This document shows, in pieces, positions 119 through 16,637 of a DNA stretch of 64,000 nt. The DNA comes from Candidatus Coprovivens sp. (GTDB lineage: Bacteria; Bacillota_I; Bacilli_A; RF39; UBA660): positions 2,111 to 66,110 of the forward strand of contig JAZOOK010000184.1 of assembly GCA_045654965.1 (NCBI GenBank), read 5' to 3'. Positions within the stretch are counted from its first letter, which is position 1. The number at the start of each line of letters is the position of its first letter. A program made the translations under genes and the position numbers. The notes beneath the pieces are model-generated. The model worked only from the letters and a program-made list of their open reading frames with translations. It was not told the DNA's origin and made no database searches.

Positions 119-147
119 TTGACACATTTATGGGCCTTTGTTATAAT
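119..147 (+). promoter_or_regulatory. Consensus sigma-A promoter (TTGACA-17nt-TATAAT) for the 275-3957 operon
   Basis: TTGACA at 119-124, an exact 17-nt spacer, TATAAT at 142-147. It lies about 125 nt upstream of the ATG at 275 and is divergent from the ssrA promoter. Confidence 0.6.
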
Positions 148-274: not shown

Positions 275-1768
275 ATGACTAAGAAAGAAGCTTTTAGAAT
301 TTTACGTATTACTCATGATATTAAGTATACTTATAAAAATTCAGATGGTACTGTTGATTTTATGGATATAATCGACACTTACAAAGCACAAGCTGAAGCT
401 GATATGCGTGTTGGTACTTATACAACTGTTAATCAATCAAAAATTAATGAAGCGTATAATTACTTACAATCACAATATGTAGCTAAAGCTGGTTCTAGAG
501 CTGTTAGAGCTACTGCTGCTGCAACAACTGGTGCAAGCAAATCTAAAGTTGCTCCAATATTAGCTGGTACTGGAATTTTATTATTAACTGGTGCAATGGT
601 TGTTGGTGGAATTCATATGTTAACTAATATGCCTAAGAGTGCTGGTTTACCAAACCAACCTGGGTATGTTCAAGAAGATGACAGAGACCAAGTTGATTAT
701 AAAGATTATGCTGCATATATGGGTGACTTAACTGATGAAAAAGCAGTTGAAGAAAGATCTGGAGAAATACTTGAATTATTCAATCAAAATGGAATTGTTC
801 ACACTGAAACAAATACTCCATATACTGTAGAAGAAATTCAAACTATTCTTCACTATATGAATGGTGGTATTCTACCTGAAGGTGTTTCAGTAGAAGCTGC
901 TAATACAGCATACTTAAATATGATTGCTGATATGTTTAATACAAAAATAGTATTATATAACTCAGCTTATATGGTAGGTGCTCAAATAATTGATTTTGAT
1001 GGAAATGGTAATATTTTAGATTTCGAAGGTAATATCGTTGATATCAATCATATAGGTTTTGATGAAAAAACTGGATTAACAATAATTGATCCACAATATG
1101 CACACCTATATTCAGAACATGGATTAGGAACAAGTGAACAACACTATAATAGAGCTGTTGCAAATTATATACCTATCGATGTAACTGATTTCCAATTTGG
1201 AGACAGTACTGCATATCCATACTTAGAATGGTTCAGTGCTCAATATAATAAGTTAATGACAACTACTGATAAAAATGAAAAAGTTGCTATATTTAATCAA
1301 TTAACTCAAAGTTTAGCTGATATTACTTATGGTAATGGTTTCCAAATGAAAAATGAAAAAGGAGAAACTATATTAATTCAATATACTGATTTCTCTGATT
1401 ATGATGATGTAAATGATTACAATGCATTAAGAATAGTTGTTTCATTATATCAAGGCGCTAGATCAATAGTTGATTTAGAAGATTATGAACTTGGATATAA
1501 TCAAGAACTTGTTCAAACTCAAGATATGTATAGAATCATCAATAATGGTGGAATATCTGAAGTATATATAGAAGATGTTCTAGACTTATTCAACGCTGCT
1601 TGTGTTGGTGAAGATGAAGAAATGCATATATATGATGAAAATGGAGTTATAGTTGATGGTGATAACTTAGACCAAAGAGCTTATTCTAATACAAGACACT
1701 TATTAGAACAAAATGCTAAGAATGGTAACTTAAGTTATTGGGAAGATCATTACTCATTATCAAAATAA
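275..1768 (+). CDS. Hypothetical bitopic membrane protein: ~95-aa cytoplasmic N-domain, one TM helix, ~370-aa extracellular domain
   Basis: 497-aa ORF with RBS GGGGGAAG upstream. A single hydrophobic segment (ILAGTGILLLTGAMVVGGIHML) at aa ~95-118. No recognisable catalytic motifs. The stop is 32 nt before the next ORF, which has its own RBS (operon). Confidence 0.6.
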   Translation: MTKKEAFRILRITHDIKYTYKNSDGTVDFMDIIDTYKAQAEADMRVGTYTTVNQSKINEAYNYLQSQYVAKAGSRAVRATAAATTGASKSKVAPILAGTGILLLTGAMVVGGIHMLTNMPKSAGLPNQPGYVQEDDRDQVDYKDYAAYMGDLTDEKAVEERSGEILELFNQNGIVHTETNTPYTVEEIQTILHYMNGGILPEGVSVEAANTAYLNMIADMFNTKIVLYNSAYMVGAQIIDFDGNGNILDFEGNIVDINHIGFDEKTGLTIIDPQYAHLYSEHGLGTSEQHYNRAVANYIPIDVTDFQFGDSTAYPYLEWFSAQYNKLMTTTDKNEKVAIFNQLTQSLADITYGNGFQMKNEKGETILIQYTDFSDYDDVNDYNALRIVVSLYQGARSIVDLEDYELGYNQELVQTQDMYRIINNGGISEVYIEDVLDLFNAACVGEDEEMHIYDENGVIVDGDNLDQRAYSNTRHLLEQNAKNGNLSYWEDHYSLSK

Positions 1769-1800
1769 TATAAATATTAAAAATTAAGGAGGGTTTTGTT

Positions 1801-3957
1801 ATGTATGATGATAATGTTACTTACAGAGTAGGAATTAACTGGAAAGACATACTTATAAAATTAATAATGTTAATATTATTCGTTGTTATTCTATTACTGT
1901 TATTTCCTAAAGCTGATTTAGATGTATTTTACGATACTGTCTATTCAAATAATGTAAATACAATGAAGGATGCTGCTAGAAACTATTATACAGTTGATAG
2001 ACTACCTTCAAATGTTGGTGATAAAACATCTATGACATTAAAAGAAATGGTTGATAACCATATGTTAATTAGATTCACTGACAAAGATGGAAAAACTTGT
2101 GATGAAAACAATAGTTATGTTGAAGTTACAAAGGTTTCTAATGATGAATATACATTAAAAGTACAATTAAAATGTGGTGAACAAGAAGATTATATTCTTG
2201 AAACTATAGGATGTACTACAGTATGTTCAAATGGTAATTGTAATACAATTATAAATAATAATACAATTGCTGATGGTTCTCAAAATAATGGTGGAAATAA
2301 TAACACTAATAATGATAACAACAGTAATTGGGATCAAGTAACTGAAGAAGTTAACAAAGGTGGATATACTTATAAGGTTACTTACTATCAACACAGAAAG
2401 AAAATAACTTCTACAAGTGTTGTGTATACTTGTCCTGAAGGATATATTAAAAATGGTACTAAGTGTACTAGTACAACTACTAGTGCTACTATAGATGCTA
2501 CTCCTCATTATAATCCAGATAAAGTTATTACAACTGATGCTAAATATAATGCTGGTGGTTACTATACAGTTTATGCTGATTATATTAAAACACAAACTGG
2601 TATCGATTATAGTTGTCCTGCTGGATATACTTTAAATGGTACTTATTGTATTAAATATACTAGTGCAACTGAAGTTCCTGGGGATGTAAGTTATACTTGT
2701 CCTACAGGTTATACTAAAAATGGTACTAAATGTACTAAGACATATGATGCTACTTATACTGCTGGAGATACAACTTATAGTTGTCCTAATGGTGGTACTT
2801 TAAGTGGTAAGACTTGTACTATAACTCAAGATGCTAGTTCATCAACTGAATATACTTGTCCTTCTGGATATACTAAGAACGGATCAAGTTGTTATAAAGT
2901 TTATAACGCTACATCTAAAACTACTTATAGTTGTCCTAATGGTGGTACTTTAAGTGGTACTAAATGTGTTAAAGAAGGTACTACATATAATGCTGTTGCT
3001 ACAGATACTACTTATGGTAGCTGGGTAGCTAAAGGTACTCAATACTATACTAGTGCTGGTAAAGGATACCAAGGAACTACTTCATGGTTACAATTAAATG
3101 GTATGATTACTGGTGCTGCTTGTGGAAGCCCTTGTGGTGGAAAAGGTACTTGGTATAAATATACTTACTATGAAAGAACAGCTAAAATTGTTTATGGTTG
3201 TCCTAATGGTGGTACATTAAATGGAACTAAGTGTGTTACTTCTGGTTCTTCATATGATGCTACTCCATCAACAACATATAGTTGTCCTAATGGTGGTACT
3301 AGAGATGGTTCTAAATGTACTTTAACTGCTAGTCCTACTACAAGTACTGTTTATAGTTGTCCTTCTGGATATACTAAGAATGGTTCTAAATGTACTAAGA
3401 CTTATACAGCTAGTTCAAATACTGGTGCTGGATCTTATAGTTGTCCTAATGGTGGTACTCTAAATGGTACTAAGTGTACTATTACTAGAGATGCTGATAA
3501 AGTAGTTGGAAATCCAACATATACTTGTCCTGCTGGATATACATATAATAATTCAACTAAAAAATGTGAATATAAGATAACTGCTACTGCAACTGCTGAA
3601 TATTCATATACTTGTCCTGCTGGATATACTAAATCTGGAGAAGGAACAAATACTAAATGTTCTAAAACAGTACAAGGTGAAGGAAACTATTATTGTGAAG
3701 ATGCTAGTGCTGTATTAAATGGTACTAAGTGTGTTAAAACAATAAAAGGTGATATTAGTCATTATACTTGCCCTACTGATTATACTTTAAACGGTACTAA
3801 GTGTTCTAAAACTACTACTGTTACTGTAGATGCTAATAAAGAAACTAAAACATCTACTTCATATAAATATAAATGGAGTAAATATTCTAAACTTGATGGT
3901 TGGGAATTTACTGGTAAAACTAAAGTAGTTACTGAATATAAAGCTGGTCAAAAGTAA
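1801..3957 (+). CDS. N-terminally membrane-anchored Cys-rich tandem-repeat surface protein (novel C-x11-C modules)
   Basis: 718-aa ORF with RBS AAGGAGGG. N-terminal TM (ILIKLIMLILFVVILLLLF), an Asn-rich linker, then ~14 repeats alternating Y[ST]CP[AST]GYTKNG[ST]KC and YSCPNGGTL[NS]GTKC at a ~26-28 aa period. Followed by a rho-independent terminator. Confidence 0.65.
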   Translation: MYDDNVTYRVGINWKDILIKLIMLILFVVILLLLFPKADLDVFYDTVYSNNVNTMKDAARNYYTVDRLPSNVGDKTSMTLKEMVDNHMLIRFTDKDGKTCDENNSYVEVTKVSNDEYTLKVQLKCGEQEDYILETIGCTTVCSNGNCNTIINNNTIADGSQNNGGNNNTNNDNNSNWDQVTEEVNKGGYTYKVTYYQHRKKITSTSVVYTCPEGYIKNGTKCTSTTTSATIDATPHYNPDKVITTDAKYNAGGYYTVYADYIKTQTGIDYSCPAGYTLNGTYCIKYTSATEVPGDVSYTCPTGYTKNGTKCTKTYDATYTAGDTTYSCPNGGTLSGKTCTITQDASSSTEYTCPSGYTKNGSSCYKVYNATSKTTYSCPNGGTLSGTKCVKEGTTYNAVATDTTYGSWVAKGTQYYTSAGKGYQGTTSWLQLNGMITGAACGSPCGGKGTWYKYTYYERTAKIVYGCPNGGTLNGTKCVTSGSSYDATPSTTYSCPNGGTRDGSKCTLTASPTTSTVYSCPSGYTKNGSKCTKTYTASSNTGAGSYSCPNGGTLNGTKCTITRDADKVVGNPTYTCPAGYTYNNSTKKCEYKITATATAEYSYTCPAGYTKSGEGTNTKCSKTVQGEGNYYCEDASAVLNGTKCVKTIKGDISHYTCPTDYTLNGTKCSKTTTVTVDANKETKTSTSYKYKWSKYSKLDGWEFTGKTKVVTEYKAGQK

Positions 3958-3973
3958 TATATATATATCAATT

Positions 3974-4001
3974 AAAAAAGACTTATAAAAGTCTTTTTTT
4001 T
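3974..4001 (+). terminator. Rho-independent terminator of the 275-3957 operon
   Basis: aaaaAGACTTataaAAGTCTttttttt hairpin plus T-tract immediately after the stop. Confidence 0.7.
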
Positions 4002-4096: not shown

Positions 4097-4609
4097 TTAT
4101 TGCATAATAAAAGATATTACACATATGATAAATATTATTATAGCTATTATTCTTCTTACAAATAAGTATTTTCTTGTTAATTGGACTAGTCCACTTATTG
4201 AAATTATCATACATACTATTGATAGATATTGTTGACCTTCTAAATCTTTACATAGCAATTGAACTAGAATGTATCCTATTATACCGATTATTAATAATGC
4301 TATATTTTTTCTATTGTTATTATAATTATTCTTTTTATCTATGTAATCTATAGTTTTTATAATATTCTCTTCTAGTTTTTCAGTATATTCTTTATCTTTT
4401 ATTTTTTCGCCACTCATCAATTCATTAATAGTAATATCAAGATTGTCACATAGTGGTTTAAATAAAGATAAGTCTGGAAGGTTTTTACCATTTTCCCAAT
4501 TACTTATTGAACGATCTGTTACTCCTAGTCTTTCAGCTAACTCTGCTTGTGTTAGTTTCTTTTTCTTCCTGTTTTCTGCTATAAATTTTCCTATTTTAAT
4601 TTGATCCAT
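4097..4609 (-). CDS. Membrane-anchored XRE-family HTH transcriptional regulator
   Basis: N-terminal HTH_XRE (KKLTQAELAERLGVTDRSISNWENGK) followed by 2-3 predicted TM helices. The start is placed at MDQIKIG, with RBS AAAGGAGA 8 nt upstream; the track ORF begins 6 codons earlier. Confidence 0.7.
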   Translation of the reverse strand: MDQIKIGKFIAENRKKKKLTQAELAERLGVTDRSISNWENGKNLPDLSLFKPLCDNLDITINELMSGEKIKDKEYTEKLEENIIKTIDYIDKKNNYNNNRKNIALLIIGIIGYILVQLLCKDLEGQQYLSIVCMIISISGLVQLTRKYLFVRRIIAIIIFIICVISFIMQ

Positions 4610-4717
4610 ATATTTATCTCCTTTCATAACTTAATTCTAAATAAAATCATATAAATATAACACGAACTAGAACTGGAGTTTTGAATAATATAAAAAAATA
4701 AATTACTAAATTGTAAT

Positions 4718-5326
4718 TTATCTTTTTTTTATTTTTTTACACCAAGTCCATTTCCCACATTTAGTACATTTTAATAATCTTCTAGTTGGTGTTTGCATTA
4801 ACAGTGCTATTTCTTTATAGTTAGGAACAAACATATGTTGACAGTTCTTACATTCATAATATCCAGTCTCTACTTTAAATTTAAGTGCAATAATGCAAGG
4901 AATTATAAATAGTATAATAGATACTATTATTAAAAAGTTTTGAAATGCACATTCAGGAATAAGAAGTGATATTAAAGTAATTAAACAAATAAGTGCTATT
5001 AAACTTATTATAATAATCACAAAAGCGGAATGTAGTAATCTTTTATGGTATCTTTCCTCATTTGTAGCCATTTGAATAATCAATTCATTTAATTGTTCTT
5101 CCTTTTGTTCTTTATCAATTGTTTCTCCACATAATAATTCATTTACATTTATTCCAAGAATATTACAAAGTTCGAGCATAATATTTGAATCTGGCATAGT
5201 TTTACCTGTTTCCCATTTTGATATAGCTCTGTCCGTTACATTTAACTTTTCTGCTAATTCTGCTTGTGTAAGTTTTTTCTTTTTTCTGCACTCAGCAATA
5301 AACTTACCTATTTTAATTTGATCCAT
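4718..5326 (-). CDS. Membrane-anchored XRE-family HTH regulator with C-terminal CxxC...CxxC zinc ribbon (tandem paralog)
   Basis: The N-terminal 70 aa are ~70% identical to the 4097-4609 product (MDQIKIGKFIAE.RKKKKLTQAELAE). Two TM segments, then CKNCQ...CTKCGKW. RBS AAGGAGGT. Confidence 0.7.
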   Translation of the reverse strand: MDQIKIGKFIAECRKKKKLTQAELAEKLNVTDRAISKWETGKTMPDSNIMLELCNILGINVNELLCGETIDKEQKEEQLNELIIQMATNEERYHKRLLHSAFVIIIISLIALICLITLISLLIPECAFQNFLIIVSIILFIIPCIIALKFKVETGYYECKNCQHMFVPNYKEIALLMQTPTRRLLKCTKCGKWTWCKKIKKR

Positions 5327-5445: not shown

Positions 5446-6189
5446 TTAATTAAATAATAATGGTATGTTACCATACACAATTATTCTTAATATACCTATG
5501 ATTATGAGATGTAATGGGTAGTATACATAGAAGAACCATTTCAGCCATGTAATTTTACCCTTCTGTCCGTTATACATTTTTAATAATGGATAAACAAGTA
5601 CTACACCTAGTTGGATAATAGCATATACTTTACTTACAAATATGAATGATACTAAGACATAGATTAATGTCCAAAGTATCATGTTTTTCATTTGTTTGTT
5701 TAGGTTACCTCTATGTTCATACATAGTTAGTATTATCATTAATGCAATACTACTCCAATCTGATGAGAATGTTACTAAGTTTAATAAAATTACTAATATC
5801 CATTTTTGCCATTCTTTTAATTTGTTCTTTCCATATACTATATGTAGTGCTACTACGGACCAAGCGAGAGTCCACATTATACTAGTTTGATTAAATATAT
5901 CTCCTGTACTAAATGGAATAAAATTAATACCGAATGCGAAACAATAAGCAAAGTGAGATATAATGGCAAATATAAATAATCTTTTTATATATTTTTTTAC
6001 ATCTTTTGTATAGAAATATCCTTCACATATAAAGAAGAACATAATAGGTGCTGTTAGTCTACCTATGATATGTAATATATTAGGTATTATAAGATTAGGC
6101 ATACCTGGATATAGCAAGTCTGCTATATGATCTATAGTCATAGCAATTATAGCTATTATTTTTAAACTATTTGAATTAAGTCTTTTCAT
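5446..6189 (-). CDS. traX: TraX-family polytopic membrane protein
   Basis: The N-terminal LKIIAIIAMTIDHIADLL matches the TraX family signature (LKxIAxxxMxxDHI). Multiple TM helices, 247 aa. Confidence 0.55.
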   Translation of the reverse strand: MKRLNSNSLKIIAIIAMTIDHIADLLYPGMPNLIIPNILHIIGRLTAPIMFFFICEGYFYTKDVKKYIKRLFIFAIISHFAYCFAFGINFIPFSTGDIFNQTSIMWTLAWSVVALHIVYGKNKLKEWQKWILVILLNLVTFSSDWSSIALMIILTMYEHRGNLNKQMKNMILWTLIYVLVSFIFVSKVYAIIQLGVVLVYPLLKMYNGQKGKITWLKWFFYVYYPLHLIIIGILRIIVYGNIPLLFN

Positions 6190-11842: not shown

Positions 11843-12901
11843 TTATCTTGAATATGCGTGTTGAGGTTGTTGTTGATTAACTTTAAATAGTTTTTTTACT
11901 TTTTGTAAACCGTTTTGAACACTCGTTTTTATTCTATTAAATGTATTGTTTCTAACTAGAGTTGTTTTCTTTCTTGATAAAGCTAAAGCTGTTAGTTTAT
12001 TTTCTCCAGCTTGTTGTTTAAATGATTCAACTCTATTAGGATCTGTTCCAAAGTTTCTTTCATATATGTTATATATCATTTTTGATAATTTTGTTTCAAG
12101 TGTAATAGCAGCTATGCTTTCTGGTACATATGATAATTCATATAATTTATCTAAGCCTTGGATTATTTCTTTTAATTCTGTTTGTGTGCAAAATTTACCA
12201 AGTTGTTGTAGAAATGCTGGTAAATTACAAGTAAAGTAGTAATGAGATATTACTTGAGGATTAGGAAAGAATCTTTCTAATAATTTTACTATTCTAACTA
12301 ATCTAGGATATGCTAATATTTGTCCGTTTGTAAATAGTCTTGAATTTAGTAATTCAGTAAATCCTTCGTTTAATCCAGTACAAATAATAGTATCACCTTT
12401 TTGTTGCATAAATCCGTGGTAATGGATGTCTTTTTGTCTATTGTACATATAACTAGCCATATGTAACATTTCATGACCTAGAATTGATTTGGTATTTTTT
12501 GCATATTTAATAATGTTTTCACTACCGTTATAGCAACCAGTTACTCCTGTTTTTTTTATTTCATCACTTTTTATTACTTTTAATGTTGAAAAGTTGTTTC
12601 TAGCAATTCTAATATCTTTACCTATTGATCTTTCCAATTGTTCCATGTATGTTTTTACAATTTCTTTATTGTTATAATCTATAGGTAAATTAGTTGGGAG
12701 TGAATTATAGCATGTTTCTATTTGTCTACTATCTGATATAACAAATCCTTGATCTGCATAATGATTAGAATGTTGTAATCTTACATTTATTTTTTGATTT
12801 GCTTTATATTGTCTGTATAAGGAAACTGTTCCACATGCACATAATATTGGTATTGTTGCTGGAAACATTATCATTACTAATCCTTGTATTGTATTGTTCA
12901 T
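11843..12901 (-). CDS. Membrane-anchored putative gluzincin-type zinc metallopeptidase (HEMLH...NEGFTE)
   Basis: 352 aa; N-terminal hydrophobic segment; HExxH (GHEMLHM) with a downstream GLNEGFTE, the candidate third zinc ligand. No close family recognised by eye. Confidence 0.4.
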   Translation of the reverse strand: MNNTIQGLVMIMFPATIPILCACGTVSLYRQYKANQKINVRLQHSNHYADQGFVISDSRQIETCYNSLPTNLPIDYNNKEIVKTYMEQLERSIGKDIRIARNNFSTLKVIKSDEIKKTGVTGCYNGSENIIKYAKNTKSILGHEMLHMASYMYNRQKDIHYHGFMQQKGDTIICTGLNEGFTELLNSRLFTNGQILAYPRLVRIVKLLERFFPNPQVISHYYFTCNLPAFLQQLGKFCTQTELKEIIQGLDKLYELSYVPESIAAITLETKLSKMIYNIYERNFGTDPNRVESFKQQAGENKLTALALSRKKTTLVRNNTFNRIKTSVQNGLQKVKKLFKVNQQQPQHAYSR

Positions 12902-12983: not shown

Positions 12984-13835
12984 TTATTTTTTACTAAATT
13001 CAACGATTTCTTTATAGATTAATTTTATTTGATTTTGTTCTTCTTCTTTGTAATTTATTAGTAGTTTATCAAGTTTTTCTTCTTCTTTTAATTTAGTATT
13101 TTTTAGTTCATTTTCGAAATTTGATATTACTAATTTAATACTATCTTCATCTGTTAGTCTTTCATATGAATTTATTTGCATTATTCCATATTTTGTTTCT
13201 TTTTTTGTTACAGCTCCTATATAAGCATTAATGCTTCTATATATCTTAGGAGTTTTAAAATCTTCATATATCATTATTGCATAAGTTAAGTTGTTTACTA
13301 AATTGTTTTTGCTTTTTATAATGTTTGAATATTTGTTTTTGAATTTTGCAAATTGCATTATTGTTTTTTCTGTTCTAATTTTAGCTGTTTTTGCTTTTTC
13401 TACGACAACTTTATTTTTAGTTGTTAAATTATATAAATATACAATATATATCAGTATTAGGAACCATATGAAACCTTTTATATCTTCTGGATTTGGTACT
13501 ACTGTTTCTACTTTTCCGATGAAATAGTTGTAGATAAATAAACTCAATCCAATACTAAGTATGTTTTCAATTATGAATGAGAATGCGCTTGATTCTTGTT
13601 GACGATTTATAATATTGGTAATATAGAAGTTTCTAATAAATATTTCAAATATTACTATTAGAAATATATTTTCTTTTACGCTAGGTATTAATGCTGATAC
13701 TACTATTATATAAATAGATGGTATTAACAATTGATTTATCTTTTTATTATCTTTGTTTTGAAAGCAATTTAAAATAATTGTTAATGGTATTGTTAATAGT
13801 ATTTGTAATATGATTGTTGTAAGTGTCATAAGCAT
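12984..13835 (-). CDS. Hypothetical polytopic membrane protein with charged cytoplasmic C-terminal domain
   Basis: 283 aa; 4-5 predicted TM helices in the N-terminal 150 aa; Lys/Glu-rich C-terminus. Confidence 0.45.
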   Translation of the reverse strand: MLMTLTTIILQILLTIPLTIILNCFQNKDNKKINQLLIPSIYIIVVSALIPSVKENIFLIVIFEIFIRNFYITNIINRQQESSAFSFIIENILSIGLSLFIYNYFIGKVETVVPNPEDIKGFIWFLILIYIVYLYNLTTKNKVVVEKAKTAKIRTEKTIMQFAKFKNKYSNIIKSKNNLVNNLTYAIMIYEDFKTPKIYRSINAYIGAVTKKETKYGIMQINSYERLTDEDSIKLVISNFENELKNTKLKEEEKLDKLLINYKEEEQNQIKLIYKEIVEFSKK

Positions 13836-14168: not shown

Positions 14169-16637
14169 CTATTGTACGTCTTTATTTTCTAGACCATTTA
14201 TATATTGGTCGAAATCATTTGCTAAATTTTCACTTGATGTATCATCAGAATTTGTATCATCTGTTTCTACATTGAATATTGTATCAATTGATAATTTTTT
14301 ATTTGTTGATGTAGTTTCAATTTCTTGTGGTGCTGGTGATGCAAACATTGCATCTATATCTAATGGTTGATTATCGTCGTTATCTTCCGATCTTGAATTA
14401 AAGATAATATCATCTATTTGTTGATCCAATGTTTCATCTTCTTCTTCAACTGCTTCTAGTGGCATTTCAACCGGTAAATCTTCTACTGTTGGAGTTAACG
14501 CTCCTGCTGTAAATGTGTCTGCCATATCTGTTGCCCCCTCTGCTGTTTCTGTTGATAAAGATTGTGGTTCAACCACTTCAACTGGAATTTCTTCAACTAT
14601 TGGAGTTGGTTCCTCAACTACTGGTATTTCTACTTCAACTGGTGTTTCTTCTACTACTGGAGTTGGTTCCTCAACTACTGGTATTTCTACTTCAACCGGT
14701 GTTTCTTCTACTACTGGAGTTGGTTCCTCAACTACTGGTATTTCTACTTCAATTGGAGCTTCTTCTACTACTGCAATTGGTTCTTCAATTACAGGTGTTT
14801 CTTCTTCAACCGTATCTTCTAAAGAATTTGTTATTACTTCATTAATAGATTCTTCAGGTTCTTTTATTTTTGATTCTTCTTTTTCTTTAGTAGTCGTTTT
14901 TTCTTTTTCTTCAATATTTTCGATTAATGATTGTAATTCAGCTTCTGCTTCTTGTTGTTTTGCAGATGAAGTAGATTCATCTTCAATATTTGTTTCTACT
15001 TCAGTTTCTTCTATTACCTTAATACCACGTTTTCCATCTTGTTTATTATCTTGATATTCTTCATAATCTTTTTTTACTATATTTGAAGTATTTTCAATTT
15101 GAGTTATATCTATATCTTTTATTAATTTAATATCTAATGCTTCTTCTAGTCGTTTAACTATTTCTAATGGTGTTTCAGGGAATTGGCGACGATGTTTAAT
15201 GTCGATAACTGTTTGTGCTAATTCTTTTAATGTATCTTTATCTTTATTTTTTGTACCTATATCAATTAGACCTGATTTTTTAGAAGTTAATCTGTTTTTT
15301 ATTGTTTCTATTTCTTTTTCGGCTAATTGAATGTTTTGGTATAATCTTTCACACTCATATTTAATAGTTCTTGTTGCTCTAGCTATATCATCTGATTCAT
15401 CTTTTCTAAATGCTGTTGCTATTTTTTCTGCTTCAATGATATCTATTCTTTTTTCATCCATAGCTGCTTTTATACTAGCTTTTGCTCCAACATTCATATC
15501 TGGAACTTCTTTATATGCTTTTTCATATTCACGAAGATCTTTTTTCATTGATTGAATCATTTCTTGGATAGATTGATTTTTAACCTCGTAATTATATTCT
15601 CTATCTCTATCAATAATATCTACTTTAGATTTTAATTCATTTAACTCTTGACTCCATAATGAAATACGTTCATTTAAGAATTCTATTCTAACTTTTTCTG
15701 GTGTGTTCGATTCTAGAATATTATAACTTTTTTGTTCAATTTCATTAGCAAATGTGTCACGAGCTTGTGTAGCTTTTAAAAGTTCTTCTTCCAATGCGTT
15801 ATCCGCTGGAACATTGATATAAGGAACTTTGATAACTGTATTTATTAGACTTAATAAGTAAGGTCTAGCATTTTCAATATCTTCTTTATCGTTTATTACA
15901 TCTTTTATTATTGATTCTATATATTTAGGATCTTTTCTTATTTCTTCTAATCTTATTACTGCTTTTTGAACTTTAGATTCTAGTTCAGCAATTCTTTTAT
16001 CTGTTTTTTCTCTTTTTGATTTATCTATGTAGTTTTCTCTATTCTCTAAGCTTGCTTGTGTTTCTGCTAGTAACTTTTTCTTTTTATCTATTTTATCTTC
16101 AATATTTGCGATTTCATTAGATACTTCAATAATTGCTTGTTGTACTCTTTCGTATGAATAATTGTGTTCTTCTAATTCATCTACCAATTGAGATATCTTT
16201 TCTGTTGTTTCTGCTATTAATCCGTTATAACGATCTATTACTTCATAATCAGTAGCCTCGTTAATACGTTCTTGCATGCTTGCAATGTATTTTTCTTGAC
16301 TTAATTTGTTTTCTCTTAATAAAGAATTACTTGCATATAAATTTTGTTCTTCTTCTTTAAGTTTATTAAGTTCTTTGTTTTTTTCTTTTAAAGTTGTTTT
16401 TAATGTTTGTAAATGTTTTTTTGTAATTATTTCGATGTTTCTGTCCGCCATTTCAGCGCTAGTATCATAACTTTCTTCTTCTGATAATGTTTTTATTTCT
16501 TCGATTTCTAGTTTGTACGCATCTACTTTTTCTATTATTTCTTCTTCTTCAATGCGTAATGATGGACCGTCACTTTTAGAACGACACATTTTTACTAATA
16601 CATCTAAATTCCAAAAAACTTTTAACTTATCGTCCAT
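14169..16637 (-). CDS. Large coiled-coil protein with Pro/Glu/Val-rich tandem repeats and acidic C-terminus
   Basis: 822 aa; heptad-rich, Lys/Glu-rich for ~600 aa; C-terminal third contains 3+ copies of the 19-aa unit VEEPTPVVEETPVEVEIPV; no TM segment. Confidence 0.6.
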   Translation of the reverse strand: MDDKLKVFWNLDVLVKMCRSKSDGPSLRIEEEEIIEKVDAYKLEIEEIKTLSEEESYDTSAEMADRNIEIITKKHLQTLKTTLKEKNKELNKLKEEEQNLYASNSLLRENKLSQEKYIASMQERINEATDYEVIDRYNGLIAETTEKISQLVDELEEHNYSYERVQQAIIEVSNEIANIEDKIDKKKKLLAETQASLENRENYIDKSKREKTDKRIAELESKVQKAVIRLEEIRKDPKYIESIIKDVINDKEDIENARPYLLSLINTVIKVPYINVPADNALEEELLKATQARDTFANEIEQKSYNILESNTPEKVRIEFLNERISLWSQELNELKSKVDIIDRDREYNYEVKNQSIQEMIQSMKKDLREYEKAYKEVPDMNVGAKASIKAAMDEKRIDIIEAEKIATAFRKDESDDIARATRTIKYECERLYQNIQLAEKEIETIKNRLTSKKSGLIDIGTKNKDKDTLKELAQTVIDIKHRRQFPETPLEIVKRLEEALDIKLIKDIDITQIENTSNIVKKDYEEYQDNKQDGKRGIKVIEETEVETNIEDESTSSAKQQEAEAELQSLIENIEEKEKTTTKEKEESKIKEPEESINEVITNSLEDTVEEETPVIEEPIAVVEEAPIEVEIPVVEEPTPVVEETPVEVEIPVVEEPTPVVEETPVEVEIPVVEEPTPIVEEIPVEVVEPQSLSTETAEGATDMADTFTAGALTPTVEDLPVEMPLEAVEEEDETLDQQIDDIIFNSRSEDNDDNQPLDIDAMFASPAPQEIETTSTNKKLSIDTIFNVETDDTNSDDTSSENLANDFDQYINGLENKDVQ
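14601..14771. repeat. Three near-perfect 57-bp tandem repeats inside the coiled-coil protein gene
   Basis: The unit tggagttggttcctcaactactggtatttctacttcaac(t/c)ggtgtttcttctactac starts at 14601, 14658 and 14715, with degenerate flanking copies. Confidence 0.8.

Follow-up and report, generated by a model that had tools for sequence, protein, structure and literature searches.

What is the protein encoded by a chromosomal gene of Candidatus Coprovivens sp. in which a short two-cysteine module recurs 14 times, and what might it do outside the cell? The gene is the open reading frame (ORF) at 1801..3957 (+) of the window, that is, of the whole 64,000-nt stretch of contig JAZOOK010000184.1 that was analysed, and it encodes a protein of 718 residues plus stop, which we refer to as the Cys-hairpin stalk protein. 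The reading that we favour, with a probability of roughly 55%, is a single-pass, N-terminally anchored surface protein of RF39 bacteria, whose modules resemble the hairpin of epidermal growth factor (EGF) domains and form a stalk that folds back on itself and bears a variable tip with a role in contact or recognition. The protein family is new; the module unit is not.

The stalk protein contains 35 Cys residues. Twenty-eight of them fall into 14 pairs between residues 211 and 668 (nt 2431-3804), five lie in the N-terminal domain and two (C441 and C445) in the central domain. The paired Cys are spaced C-x10-C in 11 of the 14 modules and C-x12-C, C-x14-C and C-x11-C in the others, and the residue two before the first Cys is Tyr in all 14. 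Within runs, the period from first Cys to first Cys is 25-29 residues; larger gaps of 61 and 89 residues separate modules 1 and 2 and modules 6 and 7, respectively, the latter gap containing the separate central domain with C441 and C445. The unit, of about 25 residues, has the consensus G-x-T-T-Y-[ST]-C-P-x-G-[YG]-T-L-[NS]-G-x-K-C-x-K-T-x-x-A-T and occurs in GY and GG subtypes, in the order GY GY GY GG GY GG before the central domain and GG GG GY GG GY GY other GY after it. Specifically, the first array comprises module 1 (CPEGYIKNGTKC, GY, 2431..2466), module 2 (CPAGYTLNGTYC, GY, 2614..2649), module 3 (CPTGYTKNGTKC, GY, 2698..2733), module 4 (CPNGGTLSGKTC, GG, 2782..2817), module 5 (CPSGYTKNGSSC, GY, 2857..2892) and module 6 (CPNGGTLSGTKC, GG, 2932..2967). 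The second array, likewise on the plus strand, comprises module 7 (CPNGGTLNGTKC, GG, 3199..3234), module 8 (CPNGGTRDGSKC, GG, 3283..3318), module 9 (CPSGYTKNGSKC, GY, 3358..3393), module 10 (GG, 3442..3477, with the same letters as module 7, CPNGGTLNGTKC), module 11 (CPAGYTYNNSTKKC, GY, C-x12-C, 3526..3567), module 12 (CPAGYTKSGEGTNTKC, GY, C-x14-C, 3613..3660), module 13 (CEDASAVLNGTKC, atypical, C-x11-C, 3694..3732) and module 14 (CPTDYTLNGTKC, GY-like, 3769..3804).

The 14-fold repeat is real and ancient. A six-frame motif scan of the window returned 13 matches, all within ORF 1801-3957, against a mean of 0.28 in shuffled sequence. The module cores share 60-89% nucleotide identity (mean 76%), and Tandem Repeats Finder detected only two 2-copy arrays, at 74-75% identity, which agrees with the view of the first-pass annotation that the copies are diverged and not the product of recent slippage. 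That annotation had also placed about 14 copies at 2380-3800, which is correct in number and, except for the last 4 nt (the array ends at 3804), in span. Its spacing of 11 residues between the two Cys of every module holds for 11 of the 14, the other three having longer loops, and its alternation of GY and GG copies is only partial, since the order given above is not strictly alternating. The NG[TS] tripeptide, thought to be in every module, is present in 9 of 14, and the proposed glycosylation at NGT sites falls with it: across the family the N-G position is occupied by N in 43%, S in 28% and D in 10%, a spread more in keeping with a turn than with a conserved sequon. An N-glycosylation sequon at NG[ST] was therefore rejected.

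The paired Cys also behave as pairs in evolution. In homologs, a Cys is lost with its intra-module partner (328/339, phi 0.95; 520/531, phi 1.0), as an intra-module bond would predict, and on this pattern each module is most likely stapled by one intra-module disulfide.

The stalk protein belongs to an uncharacterised family of RF39-type uncultured gut Bacilli. A search of 5.8 billion proteins gave 766 matches, the best 120 of which are full-length relatives with 36-89% identity; the few named ones among these 120 come from "Candidatus Coprovivens" and other Bacilli metagenome-assembled genomes (MAGs). Coprovivens has been placed in the order RF39, family CAG-1000 (PMC8035907). With each GTDB species represented by a single genome, at least 300 genomes contained a relative, and the 80 relatives listed all stem from MAGs of uncultured gut bacteria, under labels such as Bacilli, Tenericutes, Mollicutes and Erysipelotrichaceae. 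Throughout the family we find a short N-terminus (MY..N.TY..GINWKD), one hydrophobic anchor, a domain of about 100 residues with C100 and C125, a repeat region of 7-21 modules, a conserved central domain and a C-terminus of the form Y-K-Y-x-W-S...G-W-x-F-T-G-K-T-K; the Cys totals of most members fit 7 + 2n. A phage origin was rejected, because neither tblastn of phage records nor IMG/VR contigs gave any sequence relative of the stalk protein. The family is thus a candidate for a surface marker, an attachment factor or an antigen of RF39-type bacteria, which have no cultured representatives.

The domain layout follows from conservation and prediction. A short conserved tail (residues 1-16) and a single hydrophobic anchor (residues 17-35; together 1801..1905) are probably oriented N-in, as judged from the distribution of Lys and Arg. 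The membrane-proximal alpha/beta domain (residues 36-140, 1906..2220), with invariant C100 and C125, is the most conserved part. It is followed by a poorly conserved Asn-rich linker (residues 141-188, 2221..2364), a low-complexity stretch of variable length (NNNTIADGSQNNGGNNNTNNDNNSNW) that is predicted to be disordered. Leg 1 (residues 189-395, 2365..2985) consists of a long base strand and modules 1-6, and leg 2 (residues 463-675, 3187..3825) of modules 7-14. Between them lies the central or tip domain (residues 396-462, 2986..3186; W408, Y423, C441, C445 and Y452/454/457), which is the least conserved structured part, with 27% identity in distant homologs vs 41-53% for the legs and the N-domain. 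The conserved C-terminal strands (residues 676-718, 3826..3954; all of these features on the plus strand), with invariant Y690, W692, W701, T704 and G705, may close the base of the stalk. We also considered a prepilin N-terminus, comparing G|INWKD with G|FTLIE. This reading was rejected: the Gly is not conserved in the family, and neither PF07963 nor TIGR02532 in Pfam and NCBIfam matches the window protein.

To this layout we added AlphaFold2 (AF2) models. The full-length model, built with 106 sequences, has a mean pLDDT (the local confidence score) of 78 and a predicted TM-score (pTM) of 0.33, and shows a transmembrane (TM) helix at 14-34, a helix and strands at 40-137, disorder at 141-187 and unbroken beta structure from 189 to 714 (pLDDT 75-91). 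Every module adopts the same predicted secondary structure: a strand leading to the first Cys, a P-x-G turn, a 3-residue strand (T-L-x), an N/S-G turn and a 6-7-residue strand from the second Cys, with pLDDT 75-96. The first-pass expectation of one small beta-hairpin per module is thereby supported by a confident prediction, unlike its separation of the modules by linkers, as the inter-Cys segments are confidently predicted beta-strands of one rod. A segment of three modules, the central domain and three modules (residues 322-541) was modelled with pLDDT 91.4. Foldseek found no neighbour in PDB for the full-length model (best E 0.5) or the tip segment (best E 0.035, class II fusion proteins, TM 0.16). 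The modelled N-domain (helix 40-62, strands 75-137) showed a weak, non-significant likeness to the pilin ComZ (E 3.3-5, probability 0.23-0.47). Among viral models in BFVD, Foldseek aligned the full-length model over 677 columns with A0A6M6DDH0, a nameless viral protein of 981 residues (E 6.6e-12), and also matched a phage PA14-domain protein (E 7.5e-6).

How are the two arrays arranged relative to each other? The two arrays evolve in a coupled fashion. In 91 family proteins, the array lengths before and after the central domain are correlated with r 0.84, and module counts follow (n, n+1) in six size classes: (6,7) 30 times, (7,8) 19 times, and also (8,9), (5,6), (4,5) and (9,10). In the family alignment, insertions and deletions (indels) of modules come in pairs of matched size at mirror positions about the tip, almost always two per protein. 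Specifically, insertions after residues 392 and 486 measure 26-28 and 27-28, 55 and 54-58, or 59 and 58 residues, insertions after residues 293 and 561-568 measure 55 and 55 residues, and deletions at 321 and 513-518 measure 24 and 26 residues. Modules 4 and 9 tend to disappear together. When GY/GG strings are read outward from the centre, the two legs carry the same type in 74% of cases at offset 1 vs 57% in shuffles, about 6.6 standard deviations away. A GY/GG "knob-into-hole" pairing at offset 0 was also tried and found no support (46% vs 42% expected). Paired indels, correlated lengths and mirrored subtypes would all follow from a side-by-side packing of the arrays with the tip at the far end, and the structure may thus be read from repeat evolution alone. 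On these grounds and on the models, the stalk would be two-legged and folded back, with the variable tip distal: six modules run outward, a variable tip of about 67 residues follows and eight modules return, giving an all-beta stalk of about 530 residues. In this proposed geometry, modules of both legs would face each other as rungs, GY and GG copies would mark successive rungs in mirror order, and the C-terminal strands would close the base. We regard this architecture as likely.

The window protein itself gave nothing significant in Pfam, NCBIfam or PHROGs. It has no match to cEGF (PF12662; gathering threshold 26.6 bits) even at E<=1. Among its relatives, 21 of 61 match cEGF at E<=0.001, the best of them at 3.8e-19, and every match covers profile positions 5-20 of 24; some relatives pass on their summed score (39.2 bits for P0102), and a few also touch EGF_Tme5, PBCV1_P7 and Sushi. 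The consensus GY module alone reaches E 0.003 against cEGF (17.9 bits, below threshold) and matches positions 24-36 of 36 in EGF_3. A profile of 100 modules, compared with PDB sequences, returned the CCP strand-turn Y-x-C-x-x-G-Y-x-L-x-G (E 0.004) and 6ee9 (E 0.007) and nothing else. The whole window protein has a single match among PDB sequences, a zinc-finger array (E 0.1), which was judged a composition artefact of Y-x-C-P. A search for an existing family with hidden Markov models (HMMs), suggested at first pass, therefore succeeds only as far as a sub-threshold cEGF likeness, as no Pfam or NCBIfam model covers the module, and literature searches with motif strings and text found nothing relevant on a bacterial module of this kind.

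The unit looks like the C5-C6 hairpin of EGF used on its own. Its motif, Y-x-C-P-x-G-Y-x-L-x-G-x-x-C, corresponds to EGF C5...C6; a few homologs even present C-x-C-P-x-G-Y, and 15 of 120 homologs show C-x-C in single modules. It differs from EGF and cEGF in having two Cys rather than six per unit of about 25 residues, no N-terminal EGF sub-domain and a loop one residue shorter, and in the model the units are fused as a continuous beta rod instead of separate globular domains. The insect peptide SRP1 (PDB 6ee9, TCPSGYVRRGTFC) is a stand-alone single-disulfide hairpin with identical C-x10-C spacing and similar sequence, but is a free 25-residue animal stress-response peptide, and over so short a similarity homology is not established. 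Sushi/CCP domains have the strand-turn in common with the module; they differ in their four Cys, a conserved Trp, a beta-sandwich of about 60 residues and a second Cys that is not at +11. PF00084 does not match the window protein and gives weak partial matches in homologs, at profile positions 17-38. With two Cys instead of six or four and scores below threshold, the module falls outside cEGF, EGF and Sushi by their defining features.

We then scored a 30-column module profile against 1.84 billion representatives of 50% identity clusters, and it matched 1233 proteins at E<=1e-3; 442 of them pass E<=1e-10 and 100 pass E<=1e-30. Among 141 newly returned top matches, 43 have the N-terminal/central/C-terminal domains of the RF39 family and 98 are different proteins. 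The sampled architectures include F-type TraN proteins with 10-24 modules ahead of the PF06986 domain (P0145, P0150 and P0164), proteins with a prepilin N-methylation motif (P0180, P0192, P0197 and P0261), a Ser/Thr kinase with a module array as its ectodomain (P0201; P0240 was judged a kinase from its N-terminal sequence only), RHS-repeat proteins of about 2000 residues (P0146 and P0172), and Big_2 and FN3 proteins. True sushi arrays occur low in the match list (P0219). Some of the module-bearing proteins appear, by eye, to have Sec signal peptides; together with the N-terminal anchor of the window protein, this is consistent with the extracellular location named in the first-pass annotation, and the repeat region probably lies outside the cell. 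The module, called novel there, is instead widespread in bacterial secreted proteins including TraN: it is a promiscuous extracytoplasmic unit without a curated model of its own, and its distribution points to a general extracellular spacer. A dedicated HMM would annotate many "hypothetical" regions in which current models give a faint cEGF signal only.

Of these proteins, TraN offers the closest comparison. The window protein matches the profile of the TraN-type tandem unit of about 25 residues (Y-x-C-P-x-G-x-x-L-x-G-x-x-C), which is not a curated family. A tblastn search of PLSDB with the repeat region found 39 plasmids from Sphingobium, Sphingopyxis, Shewanella, Burkholderia and others, with some of the matching proteins annotated as TraN. 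One of these, the 1058-residue TraN of Sphingopyxis sp. DBS4 plasmid pDB-1 (WP_306999122.1), is encoded in a complete F-type operon, with trbC and traF on either side, and aligns with the window protein at E 2e-56 in BLASTP, with 32-35% identity over 540-660 residues. In local hmmsearch runs it scored 379 bits over 22 stretches, compared with 352.6 bits over 15 stretches for the window protein and none for the F-plasmid TraN, and resolved into about 10 modules, a non-repeat insert of about 85 residues and about 10 further modules. The two proteins thus have in common the two-Cys module of about 25 residues, in both GY and GG copies, and two arrays around a non-repeat insert. Published descriptions of AlphaFold models give TraN an extended beta N-domain with a variable tip that determines receptor specificity; the C-terminal part folds back onto the N-domain, and every Cys could take part in a disulfide (PMC9246713). 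Since the classical F TraN lacks the modules, the array is an add-on and not a definition of TraN. The window protein differs from TraN in several respects. It lacks the C-terminal PF06986 domain, which is present in P0145, P0150, P0164 and L083, and a cleavable signal peptide; searches of Pfam and NCBIfam gave neither PF06986 nor the TIGR02750 and NF0090xx models. It has its own N-terminal membrane anchor, N-domain and short conserved C-terminus, and its gene is chromosomal, in Bacilli rather than Proteobacteria, and unlinked to a type IV secretion system (T4SS), no T4SS genes being present in the window or at three homologous loci. A putative TraN-like stalk-and-tip layout appears here in a lineage in which Cys-rich exported proteins are unexpected. 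F-type tra operons carry the thiol-disulfide isomerase TrbB beside the Cys-rich TraN (F plasmid trbB, L084 13873-14418 region); no comparable gene accompanies the RF39 gene pair.

The other member of that pair is the partner gene at 275..1768 (+), which encodes 497 residues with a J-domain-like N-terminus without HPD, one TM segment and an ectodomain of about 370 residues. The partner and array genes form a conserved two-gene unit: by iterated local HMM searches, a partner relative lies upstream of the array gene, within 1.5 kb and on the same strand, at 52 of 76 loci, most of them directly adjacent, and it is also present at three distant loci inspected. Its protein evolves fast, with a mean column identity of 13%; deep searches found only 21 close homologs, and an exact-sequence look-up of the window copy returned no record. 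The family profile matches DnaJ J-domains in PDB at E 5e-11, and Pfam DnaJ passes in two orthologs and not in the window copy. Just one ortholog has the HPD motif, and in some the J-like domain is missing altogether, the N-terminus in other species being a coiled coil or, by eye, a plain signal or lipoprotein peptide. Because the N-terminus is exchangeable, the extracellular domain is the part that travels with the stalk protein.

What, then, might the stalk protein do? According to the reading that we favour, the stalk would be a rigid, protease-resistant spacer that keeps the variable tip off the cell for surface contact or recognition. The co-transcribed membrane protein, whose conserved part likewise lies outside the cell, would act with it. 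Taken by itself, the contact or recognition role is tentative, at somewhat less than even odds. Several points weigh against the reading as a whole. As to function, the domains have no significant structural neighbour or family match: the N-domain and tip found none in Pfam, NCBIfam and PHROGs, and the partner ectodomain has no relative in Pfam, NCBIfam, PHROGs or PDB sequences. As to the fold, the pTM of the tip segment is moderate (0.50); the leg statistics use related sequences, so that independent events are fewer than rows; MAFFT places indels within repeats with an uncertainty of about one module; and the register is in conflict, indels suggesting that module 4 pairs with module 9 and subtype strings suggesting offset 1. 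As to the disulfides, no obvious CxxC thiol-disulfide oxidoreductase is encoded within the 64-kb window, and Firmicutes reportedly tend to keep Cys out of the proteins that they export (PMC2823432), so in an anoxic gut disulfide formation is not self-evident. Finally, a single-copy, lineage-wide gene is also typical of a structural envelope component.

The last point introduces the main rival, which we place on the unlikely side: the stalk protein may be a strut, ruler or scaffold that fixes a spacing inside or above the cell wall, which is thin or reduced in RF39, and the partner would anchor or assemble it. Such a role would suit a gene that at least 300 species genomes contain, in varying chromosomal neighbourhoods but usually behind the same upstream partner, and a protein whose membrane-proximal domain and cytoplasmic tail are its most conserved parts; RF39 relatives are also predicted to have lost many wall enzymes (PMC10868615). 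Expression signals have been counted in its favour as well. A promoter-like site at 119..147 (+), TTGACA-17-TATAAT with a TG extension, lies 5' of the two-gene unit and matches the consensus at 12/12 positions, though as a consensus match only, since promoter-like sites in the region are not more numerous than in shuffles; a strong Shine-Dalgarno sequence, AAGGAGG at 1786..1792 (+), lies 8 nt 5' of the ATG at 1801. Against a fixed ruler stand the distal tip, which is the fastest-evolving structured part, and the number of modules, which varies from 9 to 21 between species, a pattern that is more typical of surface-exposed recognition proteins; moreover, the closest array relatives, the TraN proteins, are contact proteins (PMC9246713). 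A more specific form of the contact reading is quite unlikely as it stands: the gene pair would be a lineage-wide RF39 cell-contact device, a functional counterpart of TraN outside conjugation, in which the fast-evolving tip recognises a partner surface (a bacterium, host mucus or epithelium, or a DNA-exchange recipient), the partner protein assembles or regulates the stalk, and an oxidative-folding route is needed in an anaerobic Firmicute. If true, it would give a handle on how genome-reduced, uncultured gut bacteria attach to and depend on others.

Could the protein instead be a linear, beads-on-a-string rod, with the central domain a mere insert and the arrays not packed together? Many repeat proteins are linear and the pTM of the full-length model is low, but the size-matched indels at mirror positions, the correlated leg lengths with their (n, n+1) rule, the mirrored subtype order and the very high pLDDT of the tip segment with its flanking modules all speak for packed legs, as do the two arrays around an insert in Sphingopyxis TraN and the folded-back TraN models. 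We therefore hold a linear rod to be very unlikely.

Highly improbable, in our judgement, is that the Cys bind metal, for example in a Cys4 site from two facing modules, or stay reduced with the hairpins unstapled. The oxidoreductase missing from the window and the Cys avoidance of exported Firmicute proteins would fit, the rung arrangement would bring four Cys close, and the sole whole-protein match among PDB sequences is the zinc-finger array mentioned above. The spacing, however, is C-x10-C and not that of CxxC zinc-ribbon knuckles, there is no His, the motif fits disulfide-closed EGF hairpins, the TraN models place all Cys for disulfides, and the Cys are lost pairwise within modules. The 28 paired Cys of this protein, exported by an anaerobic Firmicute, run counter to the reported Cys avoidance and make one ask by what route, if any, they become oxidised.

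Least probable of all is a TraN orthologue that stabilises mating pairs in a chromosomally integrated conjugative element: the BLASTP match to plasmid TraN, a JGI label of TraN on one family member, a match of P0033 to the NCBIfam TraN subfamily NF009017 (E 1e-8) and a TraX-family gene 1.5 kb downstream point that way, but the similarity is restricted to the repeat array, PF06986 and TIGR02750-type models are absent, the modules do not occur in the F-plasmid TraN, the TraX neighbour is missing from the three other loci inspected, and the window and homologous loci hold pheST, ribosomal operons and other housekeeping genes instead of T4SS genes.

The remaining features concern the locus. The window DNA is chromosomal, with about 29% G+C, pheST behind a T-box and a Clostridia-type S10 leader. 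Downstream of the array gene, an A/T-rich hairpin at 3974..4001 (+), GACTT-ATAA-AAGTC with A-run and T-run flanks, was read from the sequence 3' of the stop codon and looks like an intrinsic terminator; with so few G-C pairs, it escaped the consensus scan. An antisense ORF of 122 residues inside the array gene (2227-2595, -) most likely arose as an artefact, from a coding strand rich in Thr and Ser codons. The neighbours of the gene pair comprise HTH regulators, a TraX-family gene, a hydrolase, a phosphoesterase and the pheST genes, and apart from the upstream partner they are not conserved at three homologous loci. The genes at 4097-4627 (-) and 4718-5326 (-) are tandem paralogues with nearly identical N-termini, in which an XRE-type HTH is fused to membrane segments, a composition that suggests membrane-tethered regulators; the product of 4718-5326 also carries a C-terminal C-x2-C...C-x2-C motif. 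The gene of the TraX-family (PF05857) membrane protein lies at 5446-6189 (-), and because it was not seen at the three other inspected loci, its proximity to TraN-like repeats is probably coincidental. Beside pheST, three ORFs at 11843-12901, 12984-13835 and 14169-16637 (-), of 352, 283 and 822 residues, have no Pfam match; the 818-residue equivalent of the 822-residue protein at the related locus L003 has a weak SLH match.

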